A program made the translations under genes and the position numbers. A model generated the notes under the pieces. It was not told the DNA's origin and ran no database searches. It was given only the letters and a program-made list of their open reading frames with translations. Below, one piece after another: positions 4,822-50,700 of a stretch of 64,000 bases of DNA (its first letter is position 1; the number at the start of each line of letters is the position of its first letter). This stretch comes from Chrysomallon squamiferum. Lineage: Eukaryota; Animalia; Mollusca. The DNA lies in the NCBI GenBank assembly GCA_012295275.1, contig CM022679.1, positions 6,386,001 to 6,450,000 on the forward strand, written 5' to 3'.

Positions 4822-7131
4822 TGCGCGTGTATGTGTTATGTATATATTAATGCTTGTGTAGGCGCATACTCCTATGTTTAAATACTTTATATTTCGTCTG
4901 CTTCAAAGGATGTACACGTTTCACATAAATTATGAAATATTGTATGATTTGAACAGTTAAATCTTTCATTTTTCTGAATAAAACCCAACATGTTTTCCTA
5001 CAACAACGACAATACAACAGCTAGTGACAATCGTGATCGTAATTAAGTCAAACTATATAAAAAGAAGTTAATAACGACAATAATACTTACATATATAATT
5101 TTTATTGTACTTGATTATTTGCATTATACATACAAGTGGATTAACTGAGATTAACCCATTACGGTTTAATGCAGTTAATACCGTCTGATTTTTTAGCTTA
5201 ATACGGTTATAATATTGAATTGTTATAACTACGAATATTGAAGCCAATAGAACATATCTTCTGAAAATGCTGCACAATGGAAAAGCCACAAGACATATGC
5301 ATATACATACATACATACTCACGTAAATACATGCCATACAGACAAAAATACATATACACACACATATAAATACATTCTTAAATGGAATATTAGGAGTATC
5401 AACTATTTCAAAGTTCACTTCAGAAAAAAAACGAACCGAAAAAAAAAAAAAAAAGAGAGAAGAAAACAATGATGTTGGTACAAGTTTAAAATAAATAATC
5501 GTTTTACATTGTCTTAACATTATTGACTGAACAGTTACAACAGTTGCAAGCTAATTAACTTATTCCATTTTCTCGCTTAGTTAGGGGTATATTGCACGAG
5601 TTCCATGGGACGTTTATAAAGATGGTGCAACGACCTAGATTACAGTTCTGCGTGCACGACGGTGTGCAATATGTAAAATAGCTCATCCTTTTTTAACGGA
5701 TGACTGATGAGGCAATAACAGTTTCCTGTCACTTATTTTGTTTTACCTTCGAGTAGGTACCAGCGGACAAAGTTTTAAGCTGCAATAACTTACTTTTTAT
5801 AACCGAAGATATTAATGTTTATCTTGATCGGTTTAGGAAATATACTATTTTAAAACTGAAACTGTACATCATAATTATTTGCTTTACCTTACAACCGTCA
5901 AAGTTTAATGCTTTGAATTTTATAATTTCCACAGCTTGTAGCAAAAATATTATTCCTTCGATTTAATTCAGATAATTTATACATGATCCTTATCTAACTA
6001 TATTAGACCCCTCTTTGGAAAAATAGTAAAATGGAAAGATTGCGATGATTATACGAATTATTATTTAGCTTCTTCTTTTGAACAGAAAGTTTTGCTGATG
6101 CCAAAAAAAACCCCCAAAACTTGGGAAAAGAAGTGGTGTGTGACGCGAGCTACAACAAAACGTTTCAGTTTATAATTGTTTATTTTATTATTTCTTATTT
6201 TTGAGGAACTTGTTTTTTAAAATACAGTTCGAAATCTAACTCTTTTAAAATAGCTTTTTAATTGTTTATACATCATTAGCAATATACTGTGCTAAATTTA
6301 CATGCAAACATAATTGTACAAAATGATGTACCTTCTGAGATGTTATGTCATCAATTTATAATCTTCAGACATTTTTGACTAGTTTGATGCTCCTAAGATC
6401 AAATCATTGCACATCGTCTCTCACTCATTCAAATCATCGCAAAATAATAATAAATTTCTATATTATAAATATTTATCTATTTATCCCTAACATTTTGTGT
6501 TATATTTGGAGATTTGACATAAATATTGTAAGTCTTTTATGGGGGATTTTTTAATAAAAAGTATTTTTTCTTGAAATTAAAACTCATAACTCTGAGATAC
6601 TGAGCACGTTTATCCACATTATCCCATCCGGTTTCACTTTAACTGTCTACTGAACGCTAAAGAGTGTTTGTTCATTCTTATTATTGTTATTTGGATTATG
6701 AGTAATTATCGTTTTTCTTTTTTTTTAATTATTATTTATTTAAATTTGTTTGTTTATTTACTTATATATTGATTTACATTTAGAATTTTTGTTTATTACC
6801 TTGATTATTTGTTTGACTTTTAACAATTAGCTTTAACAATTCAATTTAAACTTAATTTTATTTATTTGTTTCTTCACATAAACATTGCTTGGATTTAAAA
6901 AAAAAGAAAAGAAAAAAAAAGAAGACTATTCAATTCTTTAAATTTTGTTTTACATATTTGTTCCTTGGGATAGAATTGCTTGCATTAATTATTTTTTCTT
7001 GTTCTTCTTTTTTAAATTCAACTTAAATTTTATTTTATTTATTTGATTCTTGGGATAGTGTTGCTTGCATTAATTTTTTTCTATTCTTATTCTTCTTTTT
7101 ATTATTATTTTTATTAATTTTATTTTATATT

Positions 7132-7430
7132 CTGTACCTTTGGTGAACAGTCCCCCAGAACTCAGTTTTCAAGTACGAGTTCCGTATTATCCACTCTTCA
7201 GGTGGGGGTGTCATCACTCACCAGGTGACTCACTGTCGCTGCGTTCAAGGTACAGAGACGAATTTCAAGGAGTCTTGGGGAAACAGCGAGGAATAATCAA
7301 GGCTGTCTGTCCCGATGCCAAATTTGAGTGTCCCGTTAAAATATTTAAGCACCTCCACATTCCAAAATCAAGTTTAAAAATTTTGGCGTATGGAGGGTAT
7401 AGGGTACCCCCATCCCGGCTTCTCGAAATT
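7132..7430 (-). ncRNA. Candidate short Pol II structured RNA / sORF gene, copy 1
   Basis: TATATAAG (first T at 7459) lies 29 nt before Inr-like TTAATT (+1 near 7430). sORF 7413-7345. Hairpin 7351-7398. Terminal stem 7132-7140/7247-7255. Function inferred only. Confidence 0.5.
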
Positions 7431-8029
7431 AACGTCGATTCTTTGTCGTCGCTTATATACTCAGCCGAAGATCGGTGTCAAGGAAACGCTGTTAGCCGTG
7501 GCGTCTGAAATAACGTTCGTCCAGAACGAGTTGTGTTTTTGTCTTCGAAATGATTTCGTACTATAATTTACTGTCGTGACATTAGACTGTGATACATATA
7601 CGTCTTTATTGGTGATATGATTCAGTTTCTCTTATATATTTTTTATCGGTATAATGTGAAAAGTGTCTTCGTATTGATTAAATAAAATAGGTTGCAAAAT
7701 AGCATAATCTATAGTTTAATGCGTTTTAAAATACAATTTAAAATCTATAGTTACCTTTTGACATTGCTCAGCAGCAGTTTACAAAATACTAAGCAGTGTA
7801 GAATATGAAAGTTCCAACATTTTTACTCCATGCATTGCTAATATAAATAAATAACAAAGAAACAAAACACCGAGAAACACAGATTTAAAGTGCGAGTTTT
7901 CACAGAACTTTAAATTACTAAATATAGACTGTGACGTAACTGTCTACGATAATGCAAAATAGATACGCTTTCTCAACAATACACACTCAACTTTCACCAA
8001 ATAAACTGTGATTTAAAATATTTAAGCTT

Positions 8030-8064
<35 letters not shown>

Positions 8065-8079
8065 TTTGTTTCCTTGTCT

Positions 8080-8115
<36 letters not shown>

Positions 8116-8486
8116 AGAGAGACAGATACACCTTTGGTTGTTGTTGTTCTTCTTTTTCAGCCTTCAATAAACTGATCTAAAATATTTGAGCTTGTTTTCT
8201 GGGGTTTATTTTTAGTAGGGTTGTTATTTTTATTTATTTGTTTATTTAATTTTTTGTTTATTTATTTATTTTTTTGTTGTTGTTTTTGTGTGTTTTTCTA
8301 ATATAGCTAGATAGATATATTACCTTTTGTTGTTCTTCTTCTTTTTCATAATCTATATGTATGCTTACATATTTTTTACTCTTTAATGTATAATTATTTA
8401 TTTACTTATTTTTTATTCATTTATTATCATCATCATAATCAAACGAGAGAAATGCTGCGTTTATAATATGGGCACCATATGTATAT

Positions 8487-8525
<39 letters not shown>

Positions 8526-8726
8526 TTGACTAACTTACTTATTTTATTTTTCATTTATTCATGTCACTGACTTTGTTAATTGATTTTAATTTTTCTTTAT
8601 ATTCCTTTATTCTGTGGTTTTATTTTATTTTAATTTTTATTTCATTTTATTTTATTTATTTTTTGTTTCTTTGTTTTTATTTTTTGAGATAATACTGCAT
8701 AGATTACTTGATATTTATTTTATGTT

Positions 8727-9024
8727 CTGTACCTTTGGTGAACAGTCCCCCAGAACTCAATTTTCAAGTACGAGTTCCGTATTATCCACTCTTCAGGTGG
8801 GGGTGTCATCACTCACCAGGTGACTCACTGTGGCTGCGTTCAAGGTACAGATTCGAATTTCAAGGAGTCTTGGGGAAACAGCGAGGAATAATCAAGGCTG
8901 TCTGTCCCGATGCCAAATTTGAGTGTCCCGTTAAAATATTTAAGCACCTCCACATTCCAAAATCAAGTTTAAAAATTTGGCGTATGGAGGGTACAGGGTA
9001 CCCCCATCCCGGCTTCTCGAAATT
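8727..9024 (-). ncRNA. Candidate short Pol II structured RNA / sORF gene, copy 2 (1-nt deletion truncates sORF)
   Basis: Same layout as copy 1. TATA at 9053, +1 near 9024. ATG 9007 gives MGVPCTLHTPNF* (stop 8969-8971). Confidence 0.45.
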
Positions 9025-10258
9025 AACGTCGATTCTTTGTCGTCGCTTATATACTGAGCCGAAGATTGGTGTCAAAGAAACGCTGTTAGCCGTGGCGTCT
9101 GAAATAACGTTCGTTCAGAACGAGTTGTGTTTTTGTCTTCGAAATGATTTCGTACTATAATTTACTGCCGTGACATTAGCTTCTGATATATATACGTCTT
9201 TATTGGTGATGTGATTCTGTTTTTCGTATATATTTTTTATCGGTATAATGTGAAAAGTGTCTTCGTATTGATTAAAAAAATAGGTTGCAAAATAACATAA
9301 TCTGTAGTTTAATGCGTTTTAAAATACAATTTAAAATCTATAGTTACCTTTTGACATTGTTCAGCAGCAGTTTACAAAATACTAAGCCGTGTAGAATATG
9401 AAAGTTCCAACATTTTTACTCCATGCATTGCTAATATAAATAAATAACAAAGAAACAAAACACCGAGAAACACAGATTTAAAGTGCGAGTTTTCACAGAA
9501 CTTTAAATTACTAAATATAGACTGTGACGTAACTGTCTACGATAATGCAAAATAGATACGCTATCTTAACAATACACACTCAGCTTTCACCAAATAAACT
9601 GTGATTTAAAATATTTGAGCTTATTTCTTCTTCTTTTTTTTTTTTTTTTTAATTTGTTTGTTTCCTTGTCTGTTTTTTTTTTTTTTTTTTTTTTTAAATA
9701 GATAGATAGACAGATACACCTTTGGTTGTTGTTGTTCTTCTTTTTCAGCCTTCAATAAACTGATCTAAAATATTTGAGCTTGTTTTCTGGGGTTTATTTT
9801 TAGTAGGGTTGTTATTTTTATTTATTTGTTTATTTAATTTTTTGTTTATTTATTTATTTTTTTGTTGTTGTTTTTGTGTGTTTTTCTAATATAGCTAGAT
9901 AGATACATTACCTTTTGTTGTTGTTCTTCTTTTTCATAATCTATATGTATGCTTACATATTTTTTACTCTTTAATGTATAATTATTTATTTACTTATTTT
10001 TTATTCATTTATTATCATCATCATAATCAAACGAGAGAAATGCTGCGTTTATAATATGGGCACCATATGTATATTTATTTATTTATTTATTTATTTATTT
10101 ATTGACTAACTTACTTATTTTATTTTTCATTTATTCATGTCACTGACTTTGTTAATTTATTTTAATTTTTATTTCATTTTATTTTATTTATTTTTTGTTT
10201 CTTTGTTTTTATTTTTTGAGATAATACTGCATGGATTACTTGATATTTATTTTATGTT

Positions 10259-10557
10259 CTGTACCTTTGGTGAACAGTCCCCCAGAACTCAGTTTTCAAG
10301 TACGAGTTCCGTATTATCCACTCTTCAGGTGGGGGTGTCATCACTCACCAGGTGACTCACTGTCGCTGCGTTCAAGGTACAGACTCGAATTTCTAGGAGC
10401 CTTGAGGAACCAGCGAGGAATAATCAAGGCTGTCTGTCCCGCTGCCAAATTTGAGTGTCCCGTTCAAATATTTAAGCACCTCCACATTCCAAAATCAAGT
10501 TTAAAAATTTTGGCGTGTGGACGTTATAGGGTACCCCCATCCCGGCTTCTCGAAATT
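10259..10557 (-). ncRNA. Candidate short Pol II structured RNA / sORF gene, copy 3
   Basis: TATA at 10586, +1 near 10557. sORF 10540-10472 encodes MGVPYNVHTPKFLNLILECGGA*. Confidence 0.5.
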
Positions 10558-12517
10558 AACGTCGATTCTCTGTCGTCGCTTATATATTGAGCCGAAGATT
10601 GGTGCCAAGGAAACGCCGTTAGCCGTGGCGTCTGAAATAACGTCGCCAAGAACGAGTTGTGTTTATACCTTCGAAATGATTTCGTACTATAATTTACTGT
10701 CGTGAAATTAGCTTCTGATATATATACGTCTTTACTGGTGATGTGATTCTGTTTCTCTTATATATTTTTTATCGGTATAATGTGAAAAGTGTCTTCGTAT
10801 TGATTAAAAATATAGGTTGCAAAATAACATAATCTATAGTTTAATGCGTTTTAAAATACAATTTAAAATCTATAGTTACCTTTTGACATTGCTCAGCAGC
10901 AGTTTACAAAATACTAAGCAGTGTAGAATATGAAAGTTCCAAATTTTTTACTCCATGCATTGCTAATATAAATAAATAACAAAGAAACAAAACACCGAGA
11001 AACACAGATTTAAAGTGCGAGTTTTCAAAGAACTTTAAATTACTAAATATAGACTGTGACGTAACTGTCAACGAATATCCAAAATAGATACGCTTTCTTA
11101 ACAATAACACAGTCTACTCCAATTTTTACTAATCAATGACAGCTAAAAAAAAGAAAATATAATATTACTAAAACAGCTAGATCCTGAAATAATTTATCCA
11201 TATTTACCTTTTTCTTCTATTTTATTATTATTTTTTATATATATATATATATATATACGATATTTAAATTAGATTATGAATGAACTGATTTAGTTAAAAA
11301 TAGAACCAGCGTCTGGCGTAAAAATACACCAATCTTCAAAAGAGTCACACAACTTTAGCTGTGGATATATACCAATTTCTAAAAATAAATAATAGCTTGG
11401 GGAAAAAAAGTAAATAAATAAATAAAAATACTTGTGAAATATAGAGATACTGAAATAACTTAGTTATGAAAAAATGTATAAATAATCCAAACATTAATTT
11501 ATTTATTGAAATGAGTAAAAATCAATTCAGTAGAATATTCTAGTTTATTGGTTACAAATTTTCGTATTACAAGTTATAATTACATAAATATCTGTAACAG
11601 TGTTTTCTTAACAGTTAACTTGATCAGTTACTGTTTTAAAAATTGCATTTCAACAAAAGTAAACAAGAGAAGCAATAAATAAATAAATGAATATGAACAT
11701 AGTGTTACATTTTTGTTTTTAGTTATTTATTTATTTTTTGATATTATTATATATTATTTTTTAATTAAGTACCAAGTGACAAAATATTGTGAAGTGTTGT
11801 TTAATACTATGTTATGTAGAGGTTGTCGTCACTATCATGCAAAATGGAGGTTTTCGAGCGAAAAGTGAGGTTACTAGAATCTCTTTCTGTATTTTAAGTC
11901 AACTTTCACCAAATAACCTGTGATTTAAAATATTTGAGCTTAATTTTTTTTTTCTTCTTTTTAGTTTGTTTCTTTCCTTGTCTGTTTGTTGGTTTTTAAA
12001 TATAGATAGATAGACAGGTATACACTTTTGGTTGTTATTGTTCTTCTTTTTCAGCCTTCAATAAACTGTGATCTAAAATATCTGAGCTTGTTTTGTGGGG
12101 TTTATTTTTAGTAGGGTTGTTATTTTTATTTATTTATTTATTTATTTTTTGTTGTTGTTTTTGTATGTTTTTCTAATATAGCTAGATAGATACATTACCT
12201 TTTGTTGTTCTTCTTTTTCATAATCTATATGTATGCTTACATATTTTTTACTCTTTAATGTATAATTATTTATTTACTTATTTTTTTATCTATTTATTAT
12301 CATCATCATAATCAAACGAGAGAAATTCTGCGTTTATAATATTGGCACCATATGTATATTTATTTATTTATTTATTTATTTATTTTGCATTTATTCATGT
12401 CACTGATTTTGTTAACTGATTTTAATTTTTCTTTATTTTTCTTTTATTCTGTGGTTTTATTTTATTTTTATATTTATTTTATTTTATTTTATTTTATTTT
12501 ATTTTATTTTATTTTAT

Positions 12518-12548
<31 letters not shown>

Positions 12549-12622
12549 TTTTTTTTTTTTTTTGGTTTGTTTTTATTTTTTGATATAATACTACATGGAT
12601 TACTTGATATTTATTTTATGTT

Positions 12623-12921
12623 CTGTACCTTTGGTGAACAGTCCCCCAGAACTCAGTTTTCAAGTACGAGTTCCGTATTATCCACTCTTCAGGTGGGGGT
12701 GTCATCACTCACCAGGTGACTCACTGTGGCTGCGTTCAAGGTACAGATTCGAATTTCAAGGAATCTTGGAGGAACTGCGAGGAATAATCAAGGCTGTCTG
12801 TCCCGCTACCAAATTTGAGTGTCCCGTTCAAATATTTAAGCAGCTCCACATTCCAAAATCAAGTTTAAAAATTTTGGCGTATGGAGGGTATAGGGTACCC
12901 CCATCCCGGCTTCTCGAAACT
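12623..12921 (-). ncRNA. Candidate short Pol II structured RNA / sORF gene, copy 4
   Basis: TATATAAG at 12950 and consensus initiator TCAGTT (+1 = 12921). sORF 12904-12836 encodes MGVPYTLHTPKFLNLILECGAA*. Confidence 0.55.
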
Positions 12922-13555
12922 GACGGCTGTTGTTTGACGCAGCTTATATACTCAGCCAAACTGGGCGTCAAGGTAGCTTTGGTGTCTGAAATAACGTCGC
13001 CCAGAAGAAGTTCTGTTTTTGTCTTCGAAATATTTTCCTTTCATAATTTACTACCGCGATATTACCGTATAACATATATATGTGTATATTTGCAATATAA
13101 TTCGCTTTTCCTGTATGTAGCTTTTATCGGCCTCTGATAAGCATTTTCTTGAGAATGTTTAAAGAAAGGTCAAAATGAAGCAAAATCTTTTGTTAAATTC
13201 GTTTTAAAATACAGTTTAAAATGTATTATTCGCTTTTAACAATAATGTGTGATGGTTTGTATTTCATTAAACACTGTATAATTTTAATCTGCATCATTTT
13301 ACAGCAGAGAAATATAAAAATATATGTAAAAGCAAATAAATAAAGTACACACAGCCATTCTTATTGTATTACAATATACTTTGACGGTTGTTGTAATCAG
13401 CGTGTGACGTAAAGCTACACAAACATTCAAGACAGTTACGCTTTCTTAGTTGTTGTCAAATTAGTCCAGTTTATAATAGCTGAAAATAATATAAATTTAA
13501 TACGGAAATAGGAAAATACAATTTAATAACTTCTAAATACTGTTGTTTAAATCTA

Positions 13556-13614
<59 letters not shown>

Positions 13615-13647
13615 CATAAACTGGGAGGTATTCGGTATATTTTTTTC

Positions 13648-13684
13648 AAAACTGCGTTTTGGGGGACTGTTGACCAAAGGTACA
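13648..13684 (+). repeat. Inverted partial copy of the array core end
   Basis: aaaactgcgttttgggggactgttgaccaaaggtaca matches the reverse complement of the core's left end at 34 of 37 positions. Confidence 0.85.
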
Positions 13685-14420
13685 TAACAGTAAAAGTAAT
13701 AATAATTATTATATAATAATAGTAAACCAGTATTTATTTACGTAAACGCATGTTCAGTTGATGTAGTTAAAGTAGAAACGGGTGAGATACGTAGATAAAA
13801 ATGTATTGAATATCTTCCAAACCTGAGAGCTGAAAAAAAAAAAAAAAAAAAAAAAAAGCAAAGGATGAAAAGAACGAAAATTAAAAATTAAAAATAAATA
13901 TAAAAGTATGATTTAAAACAATTGCAGTGTACTTTACTCATACTACGAAAAACAATTTGTATGTGCAAGATATATGAACTATATGTCTATGCTCTGCACA
14001 AATTGTCGTTAAGCCTACCAAATAGATCGACCCTCTTAAAAAACCCTTATTATTATTTATATGCACTTTATTACTAGCCTGCTCTATAATTAATTATATA
14101 ACAGTTTATGCTAGTGTTCATTTTTCGTTGCAAAGTGTAGAATGTCCATTGAAAGTACTGTTAACTTATACTGATAAAAAACACTAAAAGGAATTACTGT
14201 TAATGTTGCAATAGGATATAAAACTAAAAACTATTAATTAAGTTTATAATAGTAAATACTTATTTATTTTAAACTTATATTAATTATCATAGCATTTTCT
14301 TGTGTACATATAAATATATGTAATATTATATAGGGTTTGAAGCAGGGAAATCAAGATCAGAATTTATTTTTATTTATTTATTTTATTTTATTTTATTTAT
14401 TTATTTATTATTATTATTTG

Positions 14421-19000: not shown

Positions 19001-21323
19001 AAGTTATATGATTTATCATTGTATGATGTGCTGTAATCTTATTTAATTAAAAAAGAGAAGGAAGATCACAGAATGCTTTCATATTGAAAGAATAAAATAA
19101 CTGACTTATATGAATATAAGATGATTTTAGATTAGATGTTGCTTGTTTGCACTAATTAATCACATGGTTTTCAGTCAAGTAGAATTTTCAGATAAGAATA
19201 TATTAATTATGAATTATTTTTACATGGAAAATTATAATAGTACAAAATTGATTTATTAAAATAAAAATAAAAAACCCAACAAAACAACAACAACATATAT
19301 AACACAAAAAGAATAGCTCACCAGTTTTAAAAAGAAAGCTTAAAATAAGGGGTAAAATTCTATATAACATTTTAAATCGGATAATTTTACTGACACCAAT
19401 TTTATCTGTTTCTAGATCAAGTCATGAACTACAGTGATGTGATGATTAATGTTGACATTGCAGTACTGTCAAGTGAAAGAGGATGTCAGCACCAGTTCAT
19501 TTTATTTTTATATGTACTTGATTAATCACATTATCAACATGGGGAATTCTCTCATAAATATGTATTTTATTATGAGTCATCTTCACAGTGAAAACATACA
19601 TTCAGATATCTTTTACTAATAAACATTTACCAAGAGCACAGAGAAAAGAATGATTTGAATAAACTGTATATCATATTGTTGTTCTGAAACCACAATTTAA
19701 ATAAATGATTAAATGGTGGTTGTGTTGTATTGGAATCATGTGCCCATTTACTGTTAAAATATATATGACAATCTGTTAAGAAAGTTGCAAATCAGTCTTT
19801 TAGACATATCATTGTAACACTGTAATATAGTTTTATTGCAGAGGTCTTTAATCCAAAGAGGGCATCAACTGAATCATGCCAAATAAAGATTATACATCCA
19901 TACATTTGATCAAAACAAAGTAAAATGTCTGTCTTCATCTTAATAAATCCAGATTGCCTATCACTGACTAACTATAAACACATTTTATGATGTTCAAAAA
20001 ATTCATACTCTTTGTACATTTCGCAAGCAGAAAGCTAAGATTTTGTTTGATATTAATAGCTAAATTTTGGTTCTTTTATTTCTTTCCAGTGTTAACAGCA
20101 CCATTCGCTAGAATATTATGTCAAGAAGCAGTTCTTAATAATTTGCAGTCAGAAAAGGCTGATGTTGAACAAGATGAAATTATATCAGTCACTGAATCAG
20201 AACAACCAATGGCAGCAGAGAACATTGAACCAGATATTAGAGAAGACAACAGTGCTGACCAATCAAAAACATTGTCTGAAACTGTTGTTGAAACTACACT
20301 CAGGGACCAGAAAGTTGAAGGAAAAAATGATAATAAAGAAAGTAAATTTTTTTCACTGACAAATTTTGTCAAAAGCTTCTTGAATCCTTTCATACATGAA
20401 TTCCAGGAAGATCTTCTGTTAGAAAAAGACAGAAATGAAACAGACAGTCATCTTCACCCACAGAATATTTTATCAATGGTGTCACCAGGGAACTCAAGCA
20501 CTGAAAATGGTGAAAACAAAGCTGGGTTAAAGAATGGAACAGAAGGTGGCAAAAAATATAAATTTCAGTGCCTAGGTAAAAATGTGACTGAAAATACTAC
20601 AAGCCAGCCCCCTGTGGTTGAAATTGTCAATGGCACTGTGTTGATAGAGATGTTGAGTTTTAATAAGAACTACACAGTTTCAGACTGTGTGCTGGTTTTA
20701 TTTTATGCCCCCTGGTGTCATTTTTGTGCTAAAACTGCTCCTCACTATAATGCTATGGCCCGGGCTTATCCACAGTTAGAAGTACTAGCGGTGGATGTTG
20801 CACAGTTCAGCAAGTAAGCCAAAAAGTTTTCTTTCATCAGTCAGATATGTTGTACCCTTTTGGCAGGACTGATGCCCAACAATAATTGTATCACAATCAA
20901 AATATTGTTTGTATATCATACTAAGTAAATGATAAGAAAAACATGAACAAAAAGGTTCCTTATAAAAATAGGTGTTATTGTTGAAATAAGTTTAATGGCT
21001 ATGTTTGACAGTGAAATAATGTTATTTTTCAATAAATAAAGCTTTTTCTTGATAATCAGTTATTGAAACTTTTTTTTTTTTTTTTTTGTTATATTTTTTC
21101 TTTACATTATTTTCTTCTATTTTTTTAACTTGTAGATATAAATATTAACATCTGAAAGGATTTTAGTTACAGCATATTTTTTATTATTATTATTCTTTTC
21201 ATGATGCTAATAATTATTATAAATATAATAATCAGTACACCTGGTACATTTAGGAACTTGTTATTTGTGTTCCACTGACTTATAAATGTAATGTTTAGCA
21301 TTAATTTTCCATTCCATAATAAT

Positions 21324-21368
<45 letters not shown>

Positions 21369-22131
21369 CATTATTAATATTATTATTAAACATTACTTCA
21401 GCTCTTAGTTTCCAGTCTTTTTTTTTTTTTTCCACCACTAGAAATTAATGTTAATAGAAAATGGTGATAAAGACAAATAATTTACATTTTTGTTTCAGTT
21501 TAAATGCCAGATTTGGAACTGTTGCTGTGCCTAACATAATGTTGTTTCACATTTCTAAATCTGCAGTCAGATTTAACCACTCTGAGCGCAACTTCAACAC
21601 TTTTGTACAATTTATGAAAAATGTCACAGGTAAGGTGAAATTTTGAAAAATGTTTTGTCCCTAAAATATATTTTATCAGTGTGTTAATTAATAATTTAAT
21701 GTTATCACTCAGAATGAAAAAAAAAAAGAAAAGAATGAAGAATAGAACACAAAGTGTCTGGTACTCCCCAAAACTGAAATCTAAAACAATTTTCATATTA
21801 TGTTTATTTTAACACTGCTGCTACTAATAATAATGACAATGATGATGAAATACATGTTGTTACACTATTTTCAGATTTATAATAATGACAATGATTACAT
21901 TTTGTTAAAATATTTTCAGGTTTAGAAGCTAACAGTACTGTGAATGTTACAGAAAGTGATTACATAGGCCCTGTGCCAAGTATACCTACAAAAGATACAG
22001 ACTATCTGTTGTGGCTGGCCTGGGTGTTTGTCATAGCGTGCAGTGGCTGGATGTTTGTACACAGTCACTATGGACAGCAGTCCATAAACAGAGTCCGTGT
22101 CTTGTGGCAGGAACATCAGCATATAGAGTGA
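15554..22131 (+). CDS. TXNDC15: Thioredoxin domain-containing protein 15 (4 coding exons)
   Basis: Exons 15554-15605, 20090-20813, 21499-21629 and 21920-22131 join in frame with GT-AG sites. Signal peptide, acidic linker, Trx fold (VLFYAPWCHFC...LNARFGTVAVPNIMLFH) and C-terminal TM helix (DYLLWLAWVFVIAC). A YY1-like AAGATGGCGGC overlaps the start. Confidence 0.88.
16645..17214. mobile_element. Non-autonomous Tc1/mariner-superfamily (Tc2-like) MITE, 570 bp, in TXNDC15 intron 1
   Basis: TIRs CCGTATATACTTGTGTA / TACACAAGTATATACGG flanked by TA at both ends; internal repeated TGTATAAGTC motifs; no transposase ORF. Confidence 0.88.
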
Positions 22132-28014: not shown

Positions 28015-38253
<10,239 letters not shown>

Positions 38254-44701: not shown

Positions 44702-47700
44702 TTAATCAATTTTTACTGTTGAATAGATTTTTCTCACAAACTTGCTTGTCCCAAGATAACCAAAGGTTCCTGTGAGGAAAAAAAAGAAAAAAAGAAACAC
44801 AAATATTATATTATCTGGCACCAGAATTCAAGAAAAATTTATAGAATTAAAAAAAAAGAAGAAGTTTCCTTTGTTTAAATTTTTAAATATTTTTTTTAAT
44901 TTATAATCATCAAACATCCTTGTTATTAAGCAAATATAAATACATTTATAAAATTATGTATTTTTATCATATTATGCCCCAAAAAGCATGCTCTTATAAA
45001 ATGTTCTCATGTTTTATTAATTCTTGTCATTTGAACAAGATTTCAACTGAAGAATAAGCAGTAACTTACCACACATAATACCAAGACCCACACTAAACAA
45101 TGCCATGTAACCAAAGTAGAAGGTTGTCTGGAACAGGCCATACATTCTGAAAATTTTAAAATATTACAATAAGAAATATTAGAAGTATTTAAAATCAAAA
45201 TGTTTTCTATACATATTAAACTGTACTGTACTACTATGCTGTTATGATATTGCTGAAATGTAATTTTTAATCCGAGAAGATATGTTTTCAGTTAATATTA
45301 TGCATACTTTTCAATTTATGGACCTAAGAATGAGAAAGTCCCGGTTTTCAAAAGAAAATTTTTACTTTTTCAGAATCACATTGAGATAAAATAAAGGTAG
45401 AAAGTATCACTTACTTTGTTTTGAAGAAAAAATAATAAAATGAATAAAGATAGACATAGCCTGAAGTAGATGCTGCTGCTAGAAAACTGGTCCACTGCCT
45501 GTGTAAAAGAAGGAATCATTTATGAAGACAAATTCCACAACACGAAATAATTATTTGGTAAAATTTAAAAACATACATTTTTTTCCTGTAGACTCTGGTA
45601 AAAAAAAGATTTTATTATGAGGTTAAAAAATATAAATAATATAAAATTAAAGCTAATACAGATTGTGTTATTCATGTATCTTTACCATTTTTAAAAGAAA
45701 CAGTAAAAATGAAAAAATATCAATCTGAAACCTGTTAAAGAATGTTGATTAAATGTTTTTCTAAAGTCAATTAACAGGTTTTCCAAAACAGTTTAAAACA
45801 ACTTCAATAAAGAAAATACCATAATAAAGGTAATATAGTGCTTGTTCTTTTAATTTATTAAATGAACCTTATAGCAGACATACCATCGATAATCTTCTGC
45901 ATTCAGTAAGAAGTAGGTGCAGACAATGGTCACACAGGTGGTTACAATGGCCAGAATTAGAAACACAAGCAGCATGAAACCATACACATAATATATCTTG
46001 TAGGCCCAGAATGATGTGAAAATAAAATACCTGTGAAAACAAAACAGAAATTTTAACATAAAAATGATAAACTATATAAATATGTTTAGCATTCACAGTG
46101 AAATCAATCATATAAATCAAAATAACTTTATATGCTTTGTCAGTAACAAAAAAGGTATAACAGGATACATTAAATATTACTGAAAATATTTGTAAAATGA
46201 TATCCTTAAACCAAATTAATATTATTCTAGGTTTAACATTTTTCAAAACTGATAATGAAATTTCTTTGAATATTTTTCACAATTACTAATCTGGTGCATA
46301 CACTAACAGAACAAAGAAAATAACTATGGAATAAAAACATACATTTCAATAAATATGGAGCCAAAAGGCAGAATGCCTCCCAGGACAACAATGACTGATG
46401 GTTCCATAAACCTGAAAATTATAAAAATAATAATTGATATATAAATTCTAATGACACAGTTATAAAAGCTCTGACAGAAACTAGTGTTACATTTTAAATA
46501 ATTTAATCATATCTTTTTTTTTTTAAAGTTATTTATATTAGCAACATGTTAACTGCTCACAATTGTCTGTTTATTACATCACTGTGACATATTTACCCAA
46601 TAGTCTTAACTATGTGGTGAAATAAACATATTTCAACTTTTCTTTATGTTCTACTCATATAAAATATTAATAATTCCTAATGCAATTCACCATTTCTTTT
46701 CTGGGATAGGTCTTGGAACAGCATTGATCCGACATGGGTAATTTGGTTGGCCAGACAAATTGCGACCAAGAACTGTGCCCACCAGTGTCAGTGGGAGGAT
46801 TACAAAGATACATATACATGTGACAGCCACCTGTAACAGAAATACTTAGTATTTATTATGAAAGTACATAAACAGTATCCATTTAATATTAATAAAAATG
46901 CATTTGAATTTTATAAGATATAATAACTTAAACAAGTGTGCCAGTATCAGGACATGTATCAGCAATACAGACGTGACATCCTTAAAAGCTACCATCAAGC
47001 AAATTAATTAATGAAAACCACAGGATTAAACAATCACTCAGATATTTAAGTATAACTATATGATAATTATGTTAGAAAAAAAAATATCTCCTAAACAACT
47101 TTATCAAATAAACCCAATAGATATTTTATTCAAATATAAATGATAGCATTATGATAAAAATGATTTTTAAAATGTCAATTAAAACAATGGACCTACCATT
47201 GTTCCGAATGGAATGGCTCGTGAAGCATGGTAGTATATAGCAATAAAATTGATGAAGAAAGCTGTCCCACACACAAATGTTGGCAGCATGAAGGCACTCA
47301 GTATCATCTGTTTGATCCATACTTTCCCTGTAACATACAAAACAAATAAATTAGGTTTTCAAAACAGAAACAAGTTTTATATATTATTAATAATAATTAA
47401 AATACATTATCAATTCACAATATAATTATTTTCAGCTCGTTATTGCTATATTTTAAATTTAAAGATAAATATTATTTTCCAGTGAAAAACACCAAAATAA
47501 ATTATTAACTCGGAATGGGAATTATACAACTTTCTAGACATGATCAGTTTTCCAGACATCTTTAACAATCTGTAAATACCTACCTCCCATTCTTGCATAC
47601 AGACTGCCACCACAATATCCATTCACAGGTGCTGTGGCTGCATACACAAATATGGCTGTACTAAGCAGGGAACCTCGCCTAAAAAACACAGCCCTATAGG

Positions 47701-50700
47701 TTTATTATTCCTAAATAGTTTTTTAAAACAACTTTCTTTTCAAATTATAACCTATTCTGATTTACAGATAAAATAATTTTTTAAATACTTAATCGTCTTA
47801 GTTAATTAAAATAAACAAAAAAAAAGATTGTTTGAATAATTTATTTTTTAAATTATAATTTTTATTATGCATAAGTGGTCACTTTGCTGTGAAATAGAAA
47901 CATTTTTCCCCTGTTATTTAAAAAAAATATAAGTTACTAATATATTAAACTAAATTCCATAGAAACAGATCACTGCTTTCAAAAATGTATTATGTGCAGG
48001 AATGGCACTGTGTTAATGGGTTATTGTAAATTAACTTGTATATGTATTTACTCTGTGTACAGCTCTGCAACAATAGCAAATGTTATAACACAAGTAGCTA
48101 CAATAGCTATGTGATAACCAGTTCCAATCAGTGATGAAAATAACATAGGATGTGAAGCTGGGCGGAAAACATCACCGTGAACCTGTTTCCATCCATATTC
48201 ATCTCCAAGATCCTTTTCCTGCAAGTATCGTATTTAAAATGGTAATTAGTAACTGAAGCAACTAATATAGGTGTTACTGTTTAACAAGTCTGAAAGCAGC
48301 CAATTCCTCATTCTGTTTAAAAATTATTATGTTACAGACTGTAGACACTAGGTCCCATATTTGATATCAACATTTTTTTAAACTTGCCAGACCTTCACAT
48401 TTAATCCATGTGTTATTTATAATTAACTATTTTCATTTTTGAAGTGATTCAAAATGCAAACATAATATCCTTCATCAATGTTAACATCACTATATGCCTT
48501 CATAACTTACCATGTCATCAAGATCTTCTTCTTTGCTGTATCTGGCATAGTCCTTGCGAAGAGTTCTCATCAAAATCATACTGACCAACCCAACCAGAAA
48601 TATGACCATCATGAAGGAATTGAAAATGCTGAACCAATGGATCTGAAATATATATATAACATTTATATATCATTAACTCTAGATTTTGTCTTAACATGGA
48701 GAAAAGAACCATTTGGAAAATATTTGACATTTTAAATTCTAGACTATGAACAAATCAACATATAAATTAATCATGCTATTAACAAAAGTAATATAAATGT
48801 AATACAGAATAAATTTAAAATTTAAGAAAGTTGTGAAATATGATTAGTGATGGAAGTAAAACTTATATAAATAAATAAATATATTCTTCACTATTTATTC
48901 ATTTAATTATGTATAATTTTATTAGAATTATAAATTTGATTTATCAACATGATTTTTTTTATTGACACATCAATATATTGAGATGTTATATTCTTACCCG
49001 ATGCTGAAAGAAGTTGGGATCCAGATACTTATCAAATCTGTCAGCAAATTTTACCTTTGATTCATGCCATTTCACCTGAAAATATTTATCAAGTCCAACA
49101 AAATGTTATCAATAATGTATTTTTGATTCTGTCTGGGGAGTACTTTCACTGTAGTATAGTTAATGTAACTATTTAAATATCTTGGCTTTTAAAAATTAAA
49201 AAATAAATAAATCTTTGTTTCATAGTACCATTAAATCTCTTTAAAAAAATGGTTAGTTATTTAAGAGAAAAGCCATGTTGATGCTGTGATAAAAAAAAAT
49301 TGAAATCATCTGTCACTGCAGCTTCACACACAACAAAATATCTGTATAATATTAACAAGAACAGAAATGGGCCAATCGGTTCACTGAATGTACACAAGTT
49401 ACTATTACAAGAATGCAGAGCTGCTGCAAACATTTACCTCGTATGTAAATGGAATTTTTATTCCTTGAGTAAGTTTAACTTTGACCTCGCTTGTCAGATT
49501 AACATCAACAATCATTTTGCCATTGTATCCAATATCAAACTTTTTGTGAGTCCATATATAGTGTCCATCTCCACCTTCATCAATTTCTCCAACAATACCT
49601 AGGAATGGTAAAATAATAATAAAAATGAAATAAAATAATGAATAAATACAAAATAAAATATTTTCTTTGGATAGAATTCACAGACAATATAATAAAAGCT
49701 AGAAATGATCTATTATATACATGTTTCTATTATTATACTTGCCCCATATTGGAAGATCATCAATATACATCTGATACCAGTAATGATTCCTGACTGCATA
49801 GATGAAAGCTTGAAACTTCTTTTCTGTTAATTCAATAGAACAGTATTCTGTTTTCACCATGTCAGCTACAAAAGAATGCATAAATTGTTAGACAAACTGA
49901 AACTAAATATTTATTATTTATGTCATAAACAGAAAATATAATGTCAAAAATAAAGACAAACAAATACCTTTAAAATCAATATCAAGTCCACTGAAGTCCA
50001 ATTCAACACCAAGGAGAGCTTCACCAAGAGTTTCATGATAATGACTTATTGACTCTTTAGGTCCACGGCAGAATGGCAGTGAATAGTATTCGTAAGTCTC
50101 TTGTCGATTGTGGTATGGTCCAACAGTATTCATCCAGAGAACAACCTCTTCTCCATCTTCATACTGTGGGGGAAAAAATATTAAACTGTATCATCTCAAA
50201 ATCATAGAGAAAATTATAAATGCCACCTTTAATGCTCTATACAAAACTGTACTCATTTATTAATGATACCTCCCCAACCAAAAAAAGAGATGTTATTTTT
50301 GCAGACTATAATAATTAATTAAAATATTATTTATCAAAAATTTGGTAACAACTACAAAAAACAAGATAGACAAAAGATATACTTATAAAAATCCATTAAA
50401 ATTTGAACAATCTCACTAGGATATAATGTTATCACATTGTAAAAACAAAAAGATTTTCCTTCCAAATAAAATTTCACTATTTGAATGTGTGAATGTATAT
50501 CATACTATATGTGAAATAAAAAATAAAAATAACGCATTTATAGAACAGTGCAAGACAATTATCATTATTATTTTTCTTTTTTAATTAAATTTGAAATTTT
50601 ATTATTGTTTTTAATTATTTTTCCTGAAGGGTTAAATTATTATTTTCAATTTTGTAATAAAGAAAATATATAATCATATGAAAACTGCAGTGGATAATGG

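Follow-up and report, generated by a model that had tools for sequence, protein, structure and literature searches.

In a 64,000-nucleotide (nt) stretch of the genome of the mollusc Chrysomallon squamiferum (contig CM022679.1, positions 6,386,001 to 6,450,000; hereafter the window), four units follow one another in a tandem array, each with a TATA box placed at a fixed distance before a minus-strand core of about 300 nt. The core is composed of two modules, a 5′ module of 176 nt present in low copy and a 3′ module of 122 nt common to many dispersed contigs, a division that an earlier description made from the letters alone (the first-pass annotation) had not seen. We propose, tentatively, that the four units are a small gene family that RNA polymerase II (Pol II) transcribes into a folded non-coding RNA of some 310–330 nt, and that this family is the likely source of the dispersed 3′-module repeat. 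That the units are real non-coding RNA genes, whether their 3′ module was the source of the repeat or was captured from it, we regard as probable. The proposal is carried by the copies themselves, by a TATA distance that the diverged paralogues keep as well, by the failure to find any conserved open reading frame and by the occurrence of the 3′ module in many contigs; its further steps go beyond the sequence anatomy and are worded conditionally throughout.

The box TATATAAG starts 29 nt ahead of the initiator A in the four copies (the initiator is TTAATT in copies 1 to 3 and TCAGTT in copy 4), just as had been reported. In Pol II core promoters of the TATA/initiator type the TATA box precedes the initiator by about 30 nt with fixed spacing, and this arrangement is found in all four copies and in the paralogues described below. 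A run of five T at +50/51 within every core was also noticed correctly before. TATATAAG occurs 18 times in the whole window, and AATAAA, which follows each core at +307, +306, +307 and +307 (copies 1 to 4), is a weak signal when taken alone because its background on the same strand is 13.9 per kb between 6 and 14 kb of the window; its presence in the four copies stands. What goes beyond chance is the fixed TATA spacing together with the edge of identity at +1. Since the data at hand are contigs only, start site, strand and polymerase are deduced from the letters. Heat-shock, metal-response and octamer motifs were sought in the four upstream regions, and none is common to them all.

The four cores are 298 nt long, copy 2 being one base shorter, and any two of them differ in 6–16 of 301 aligned columns, in agreement with the near-identical minus-strand cores of the first-pass annotation. 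The AT-rich spacers in which it placed them turned out not to be unrelated DNA, being themselves duplicated: units 1 and 2 are 93% identical across 1,599 columns, spacers included, and units 1 to 3 are 95% identical over their first 860 bp. The upstream flank is common to copies 1 to 3 and the downstream flank to copies 2 to 4, from which we infer that the array would have grown when two older paralogues underwent unequal crossover within the core; the informative comparison is therefore that of copy 1 with copy 4. In this pair 98 of 285 columns differ upstream (−300 to −30), none of 8 in the TATA box, 8 of 21 in the spacer from TATA to +1, 11 of 176 in the 5′ module (+1 to +176), 1 of 122 in the 3′ module (+177 to +298) and 22 of 46 beyond +312, while the whole core has 12 differences in 298. 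The core is thus held against diverged flanks in this old pair only, and the claimed edge of near-identity at the predicted +1 is seen in it. To call the TATA-to-core stretch of copy 4 'largely rewritten' was, however, too strong, for 8 in 21 is the same rate as the 98 in 285 found upstream. About 780 bp at 11120–11900 are found only between copies 3 and 4 and probably represent the spacer that first separated the two old paralogues. A local duplication of about 100 bp (6938–7038 and 7023–7128, 80%) lies downstream of copy 1, in flanking DNA unique to that copy.

One search of sequencing runs returned contigs from five runs of a single organism (X1 to X5), four of them RNA runs of one study and one of unrecorded kind; their summed contig depth is no copy number and can rank neither parts nor runs. 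Long single contigs of X5 have a depth of 35–57, and the summed depth, again no copy number, is 138–1,485 on the 5′ module and 1,812–33,867 on the 3′ module. Contig depth of this sort, which does not count copies, would put the full-length loci at roughly ten to twenty-five, with the 3′ module present in far greater number. Paralogues outside the window appear among these contigs. Over 219 nt, record 6 of X2 differs in 25 letters and needs 15 gaps (about 82% identity), and records 16, 20, 21 and 22 of X5 are further forms absent from the window, the similarity of record 16 being confined to the first 61 nt and the 3′ module. From 12925 on, where the sequence of copy 4 is left, the changes in record 20 and two consensuses of loose ends (3 contigs each, agreement 0.68 and 0.8) give spacers of 17 nt unlike the local ones, and the TATA box then stands in its usual position. 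If the two types of the array are added, TATA and core are separated by at least four spacers, all of one length, and they are the best evidence that the promoter may be a working one.

The core, or part of it, is present in contigs of all four RNA libraries (presence only). X2 contigs lying within the core reach depths of 34–858, record 6 having 514, and the deepest carries the letters of copy 3 over 74 nt. Transcription of the cores is therefore likely on the evidence of contigs, which give neither start, strand nor level. The summed X2 depth drops from 770 (12909–12921) to 11 (12935 onward), and the summed depths of X1 and X4 are below 20 on the 5′ module; these figures are not counted as proof of a start or of regulation. 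Nothing is proved either by the depth of 0–2 of RNA contigs at 7456–7824, where X5 has 109–662, or by the X2 depth of only 5–13 over 12610–12687, which takes in the last 65 nt of the core; an earlier 3′ end, self-cleavage and filtered contigs are candidate causes of the latter, none of them favoured. Two contigs of depth about 11, record 12 of X2 (12889–13390, 502 long) and record 14 of X4 (12809–13223, 415 long), start in copy 4 and extend upstream, aligned to 12975; they may stem from carried-over DNA, or from a transcript that is longer or divergent and comes from the direction of the thioredoxin-domain gene.

On the minus strand the core is predicted to fold into two closed domains joined by a linker of 4–5 nt. 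The first predicted helix begins at the predicted +1, and an A/G difference at +2 keeps its pairing. Compared with shuffles the whole core has a z of −3.15 on this strand; the 5′ module is better than shuffles on the minus strand only (−2.84 vs +0.13 on plus), and the 3′ module gives −2.45 on minus and −1.94 on plus. In the diverged X2 record 6, folded by hand with 21 of its 25 changes visible, the first helix and the hairpin at 12845–12885 would be retained. The positions of these domains and of the other features are collected in Table 1.

Table 1. Features of the array and its surroundings (window coordinates; +1 is the predicted start)
Feature	Position	Strand	Remarks
Core, copy 1	7133..7430	-	predicted +1 = 7430; 5′ module 7255-7430, 3′ module 7133-7254
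Core, copy 2	8728..9024	-	one base short in A/T run near +47; 3′ module 8728-8849; predicted +1 = 9024
Core, copy 3	10260..10557	-	3′ module 10260-10381; predicted +1 = 10557
Core, copy 4	12624..12921	-	3′ module 12624-12745; predicted +1 = 12921
Three tandem units	7133..12623	.	lengths 1,595, 1,532 and 2,364 bp
TATA box, copy 1	7452..7459	-	at -29
TATA box, copy 2	9046..9053	-	at -29
TATA box, copy 3	10579..10586	-	at -29
TATA box, copy 4	12943..12950	-	at -29
AATAAA, candidate poly(A) signal, A-rich flank	7119..7124, 8714-8719, 10246-10251, 12610-12615	-
Predicted 5′ domain (copy 4)	12752..12921	-	helix +1..+9 with 12752-12760 closes four hairpins; best-kept hairpin 12845-12885
Predicted 3′ domain (copy 4)	12622..12747	-	closed by 10-pair inverted repeat at module ends
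Octamer, presumably CRE-like	7932..7939	.	retained in copies 1-3 (about 500 bp upstream) and, at 13405-13412, in the diverged flank of copy 4
Deviant type I hammerhead-like arrangement (copy 4; alike in all four)	12643..12699	-	CUGAAGA at 12692-12686; any cleavage would fall between 12649 and 12648

In the model that we propose, TFIID would bind the TATA box and Pol II would start at the initiator A. The transcript would fold into the two closed domains with the short linker between them, and cleavage after AATAAA would form its 3′ end, giving an RNA of about 310–330 nt. Now and then, the reverse transcriptase of a retrotransposon, acting in trans, would prime on the A-rich 3′ end; reverse transcription would usually halt at the linker, before the 5′ domain, and leave promoterless copies of 120–135 bp. 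Because the promoter would lie outside the copied part, the dispersed copies could not sustain the promoter-bearing loci, and the upkeep of these loci would speak for selection acting on the RNA, which would most likely serve as a scaffold for protein binding, as BC1 and BC200 do.

Several observations weigh against this model. Within the 30-letter loose ends, none of the dispersed copies showed a poly(A) tail or a target-site duplication, and no U/GU-rich element was found after AATAAA in the four copies. The whole core folds equally well on the plus strand (z −3.74). None of the 22 variable columns of the four copies holds a compensatory change: 5 are unpaired, 8 keep their pair and 9 break it, that is, 9 of the 17 variable columns that are paired; record 6 of X2, in the hand fold, loses the last two hairpins of the 5′ domain. 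That the transcribed part is homogenised or under selection, as had been suggested, holds among copies 1 to 3 for the 3′ module, which is more conserved than the flank (2 of 122, p 0.018), but not for the 5′ module, which shows no extra conservation (13 of 176 vs 33 of 462 in the upstream flank, p 0.87). Gene conversion alone can make cores homogeneous. The RNA libraries may contain DNA, X2 and X4 contigs running upstream of copy 4. Finally, the sharp inner end of the dispersed copies at an inverted repeat fits a miniature inverted-repeat transposable element (MITE) at least as well.

This last point leads to the principal competing explanation, in which a 122-bp MITE-like element, or a tiny solo long terminal repeat (LTR), was inserted behind a TATA promoter and a leader of 176 nt, kept as the 3′ domain, and duplicated as DNA with the rest of the composite. 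The Pol II non-coding RNA family would remain, but descent would run the other way. We hold this explanation to be rather unlikely. The 3′ module has 8 perfect inverted terminal bases beginning TGT, as a MITE would, and 10 predicted pairs at its ends, and far more contigs fall on it than on the 5′ module. Among the loose ends listed, a set to which 38 further rows belong, at least 19 contigs in three runs end at its inner edge (12745–12746; 1 in X1, 5 and 1 in X2, 8 and 4 in X5). At the outer edge, on the other hand, homology runs beyond the terminus: four X5 contigs, aligned from 12616 on, extend past the inverted repeat and reach the A-rich tail. So does a relic that the first-pass annotation missed, an inverted, 5′-truncated copy of the 3′ end of the core with its A-rich tail (13645–13721, plus strand, 82% over 77 nt), which sits about 720 bp upstream of copy 4 beside a (TA)n/T-run and is the only further copy of the 3′ module in the window. 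No direct repeat or target-site duplication flanks the 3′ module in any of the four local copies, and no primer-binding site or polypurine tract is found in the 8 flanking bases. Many dispersed copies with target-site duplications had been named beforehand as the mark of a transposon; half of this holds, the 3′ module being a dispersed repeat whose local copies carry no such duplication. Ginger-type MITEs have TGT...ACA ends. Like these, and like the solo LTRs of the Helenus terminal-repeat retrotransposon in miniature (TRIM) as far as the accessible part of its description goes (PMC10886601), the module is short and repeated, with TG...CA ends and an inverted repeat. It differs from both, within the same portion of that source, in the missing local target-site duplication, in having no tRNA and no A or B box, in its asymmetric outer end, and in being joined to a 5′ module and a TATA promoter.

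The units could also be without function for the host, a promoter-bearing repeat cassette whose cores were homogenised by gene conversion and unequal crossover and whose transcription is a by-product. The pattern of flanks fits crossovers within the core, no covariation is seen among the copies, and the 5′ module is unconstrained among copies 1 to 3. This explanation is nonetheless improbable, as both the TATA sequence and its distance are kept behind at least four spacers, including paralogues about 18% diverged, and conversion has no reason to end at +1.

There is, we think, a slimmer chance that the 3′ module holds a ribozyme, a slow or switchable type I hammerhead that would cut at +273 and make the 3′ end, in an element descended under a TATA promoter from a Penelope-like or retrozyme element. 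In all four copies CUGAAGA and then GAAA are followed by a stem III of three pairs, by UUC and by a stem I of six pairs, so that CUGANGA, GAAA and NUH are present in order with stems I to III, with departures; the adjacency of stem I to C3, the G10.1-C11.1 pair and A13 are not found. A descriptor composed after the sequence had been seen matches the four copies and nothing else in the window, and 19 of 40,000 shuffles (3 of 40,000 under stricter settings). Rfam RF00163 (Hammerhead_1) aligns at the same place, with 11.4 bits and E 7.4 against a gathering score of 34 bits. Each of the two possible registers departs twice from the consensus: register A has an extra C before C3 and a poor stem II, with G-U then U-U, and costs 13.3–18.7 kcal/mol to fold; in register B, the one aligned by Rfam, position 13 is occupied by G and stem I has C opposite C at its base, the cost being 10.2 kcal/mol. 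The dispersed contigs vary within CUGAAGA. We do not class the arrangement as a hammerhead and take it as a lead with little chance of proving correct. Natural variants with insertions beside C3 and a weak stem II are known, and under standard conditions the insertions impair cleavage, according to the consulted portion of PMC3088659. Retrozymes are tandem repeats of 150–450 bp with type I hammerheads, known from mussel, in the accessible parts of two sources (PMC7229834; bioRxiv 10.64898/2026.07.22.740005), the first of which gives their RNAs as predicted to be highly self-paired. The animal non-LTR retrozymes described there resemble the present element in being about 300 nt, self-paired, tandem and dispersed, with a comparable hammerhead-like arrangement; in contrast, the array units measure 1.5–2.4 kb and each has its promoter, and the consensus hammerhead core is neither reached nor kept in the dispersed copies. 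The head-to-tail monomers of 150–450 bp that define a non-LTR retrozyme are not found here, the units being of 1,595, 1,532 and 2,364 bp. It is conceivable, with the same small chance, that a cellular Pol II RNA stems from a tamed retrozyme, the hammerhead of the 3′ module resting in an off-fold and cutting at +273 only when refolded. The RNA would then have two forms, one polyadenylated and one self-cleaved, and switch from one to the other, while its 3′ module would be parent of a dispersed repeat family.

That the core belongs to a known class passed over by Rfam, as a highly diverged H/ACA RNA, telomerase RNA, 7SK or Sm-class small nuclear RNA (snRNA), is very unlikely. The first-pass annotation could match it to none of 7SK, 7SL, U snRNAs, U3/U8, RNase P/MRP, vault or telomerase RNA, and Rfam 15 gives no match at gathering score across the 64 kb; relaxed thresholds yield one chance match outside the core in 7000–7700 and six in the 3′ module (E 0.45–8.9). 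An ANANNA at +241 and an ACA/AUA at +301 are placed aptly for an H/ACA RNA of 130 nt, and a box C and a CUGA are present, but the hairpin-H-hairpin-ACA fold costs 15.7–16.7 kcal/mol. The 5′ hairpin of 7SK has repeated GAUC, of which there is none in the four copies. Sm-class snRNAs carry a single-stranded Sm site, and in the fold predicted for copy 4 every base of the only Sm-like match (+62) is paired. ARAGORN finds no tRNA; a resemblance to the tRNA-Phe anticodon loop was rejected on this ground and because the loop varies among dispersed contigs. No exact A or B box is present in copy 4 on either strand, unlike in a tRNA-derived short interspersed element (SINE) or a Helenus TRIM. Telomerase RNA, whose required domains were taken from the available part of PMC11892584, was rejected as the TTAGGG template is absent from the four copies on both strands. 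Two other candidates were set aside: alternative first exons of the neighbouring elongase gene, as no consensus donor stands at the end of the core and paralogues lie elsewhere, and copy 4 with the relic as the two ends of a 1-kb transposon, as copies 1 to 3 have no second end.

A peptide product is hardly credible: all four copies have an ATG in favourable context at +18, but the frame that it opens runs for 22 codons in three of them and for 12 in the frameshifted copy 2, X2 record 6 has frame-breaking gaps, and the plus-strand frame open across the core in three copies (7074–7508, 10225–10590 and 12589–13137), as in 461 of 20,000 shuffles (about 2%), has 0 synonymous vs 9–12 replacement codons per pair (copy 2 omitted for its gap), with no Pfam match and no homologue. 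We accordingly read the core as presumably non-coding. The multicopy Pol II family for a structured RNA or a micropeptide envisaged by the first-pass annotation finds no support for the micropeptide; what is supported is a multicopy unit of TATA/initiator type, apparently non-coding, with a predicted fold and no Rfam match, and with paralogues that keep the TATA distance.

The gene family for a folded Pol II RNA that we favour has its nearest likeness in BC1 with ID, BC200 with Alu and 7SL with Alu, where a few promoter-bearing genes for a short RNA coexist with many promoterless, dispersed partial copies. Those are Pol III genes with internal promoters, whereas here an external TATA/initiator, an AATAAA, a T5 run at +51 and no A or B box are found, and it is the 3′ domain that is shared. 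Superfamilies of gastropod SINEs whose central domains are conserved, as presented in the accessible portion of PMC4758252, are likewise short dispersed repeats, but the present element has no tRNA head. Six 8–9-mers were compared with three of the four supplementary files of that paper; five are absent from these files and the sixth occurs in them in an unrelated context only. The literature searched, including a full-text lookup of six 13–16-mers that met two unrelated papers, holds no description of the element, although the 3′ module may be catalogued in Repbase, Dfam or other supplements, which lay outside that search. Exact 18- and 15-mer scans gave 9 matches in metagenome contigs and 100 in viral contigs, and at the 109 loci compared similarity never exceeds a stretch of chance size; 20–21-mers have no match in genome and viral contigs.

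Among the neighbours in the window, an elongase (PF01151) is encoded at 1116–1916 on the minus strand by an uninterrupted open reading frame of 267 codons; its best named relatives are gastropod proteins of 65–69% identity, in keeping with a molluscan and probably gastropod host, and one further protein has 88%. Thioredoxin-domain exons (PF00085) at 20089–22131 on the plus strand are compatible with the label TXNDC15 given earlier. A multi-exon gene at 35503–38253 (plus strand) combines a long stretch that matches no Pfam family with a Death domain at its C terminus (PF00531, E 3.9e-6), and the exons at 45850–50190 (minus strand) resemble what we take to be a gene of the TM9SF family (endomembrane protein 70).

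To our knowledge, molluscs have so far yielded few small structured RNAs, and the known source genes of short repeats are mostly transcribed by Pol III. If it is what it appears to be, a family with an mRNA-type TATA/initiator promoter and two folded modules, the 3′ one recurring in a dispersed repeat, would exemplify either a Pol II RNA that seeds a repeat family or a repeat captured into a new RNA gene.

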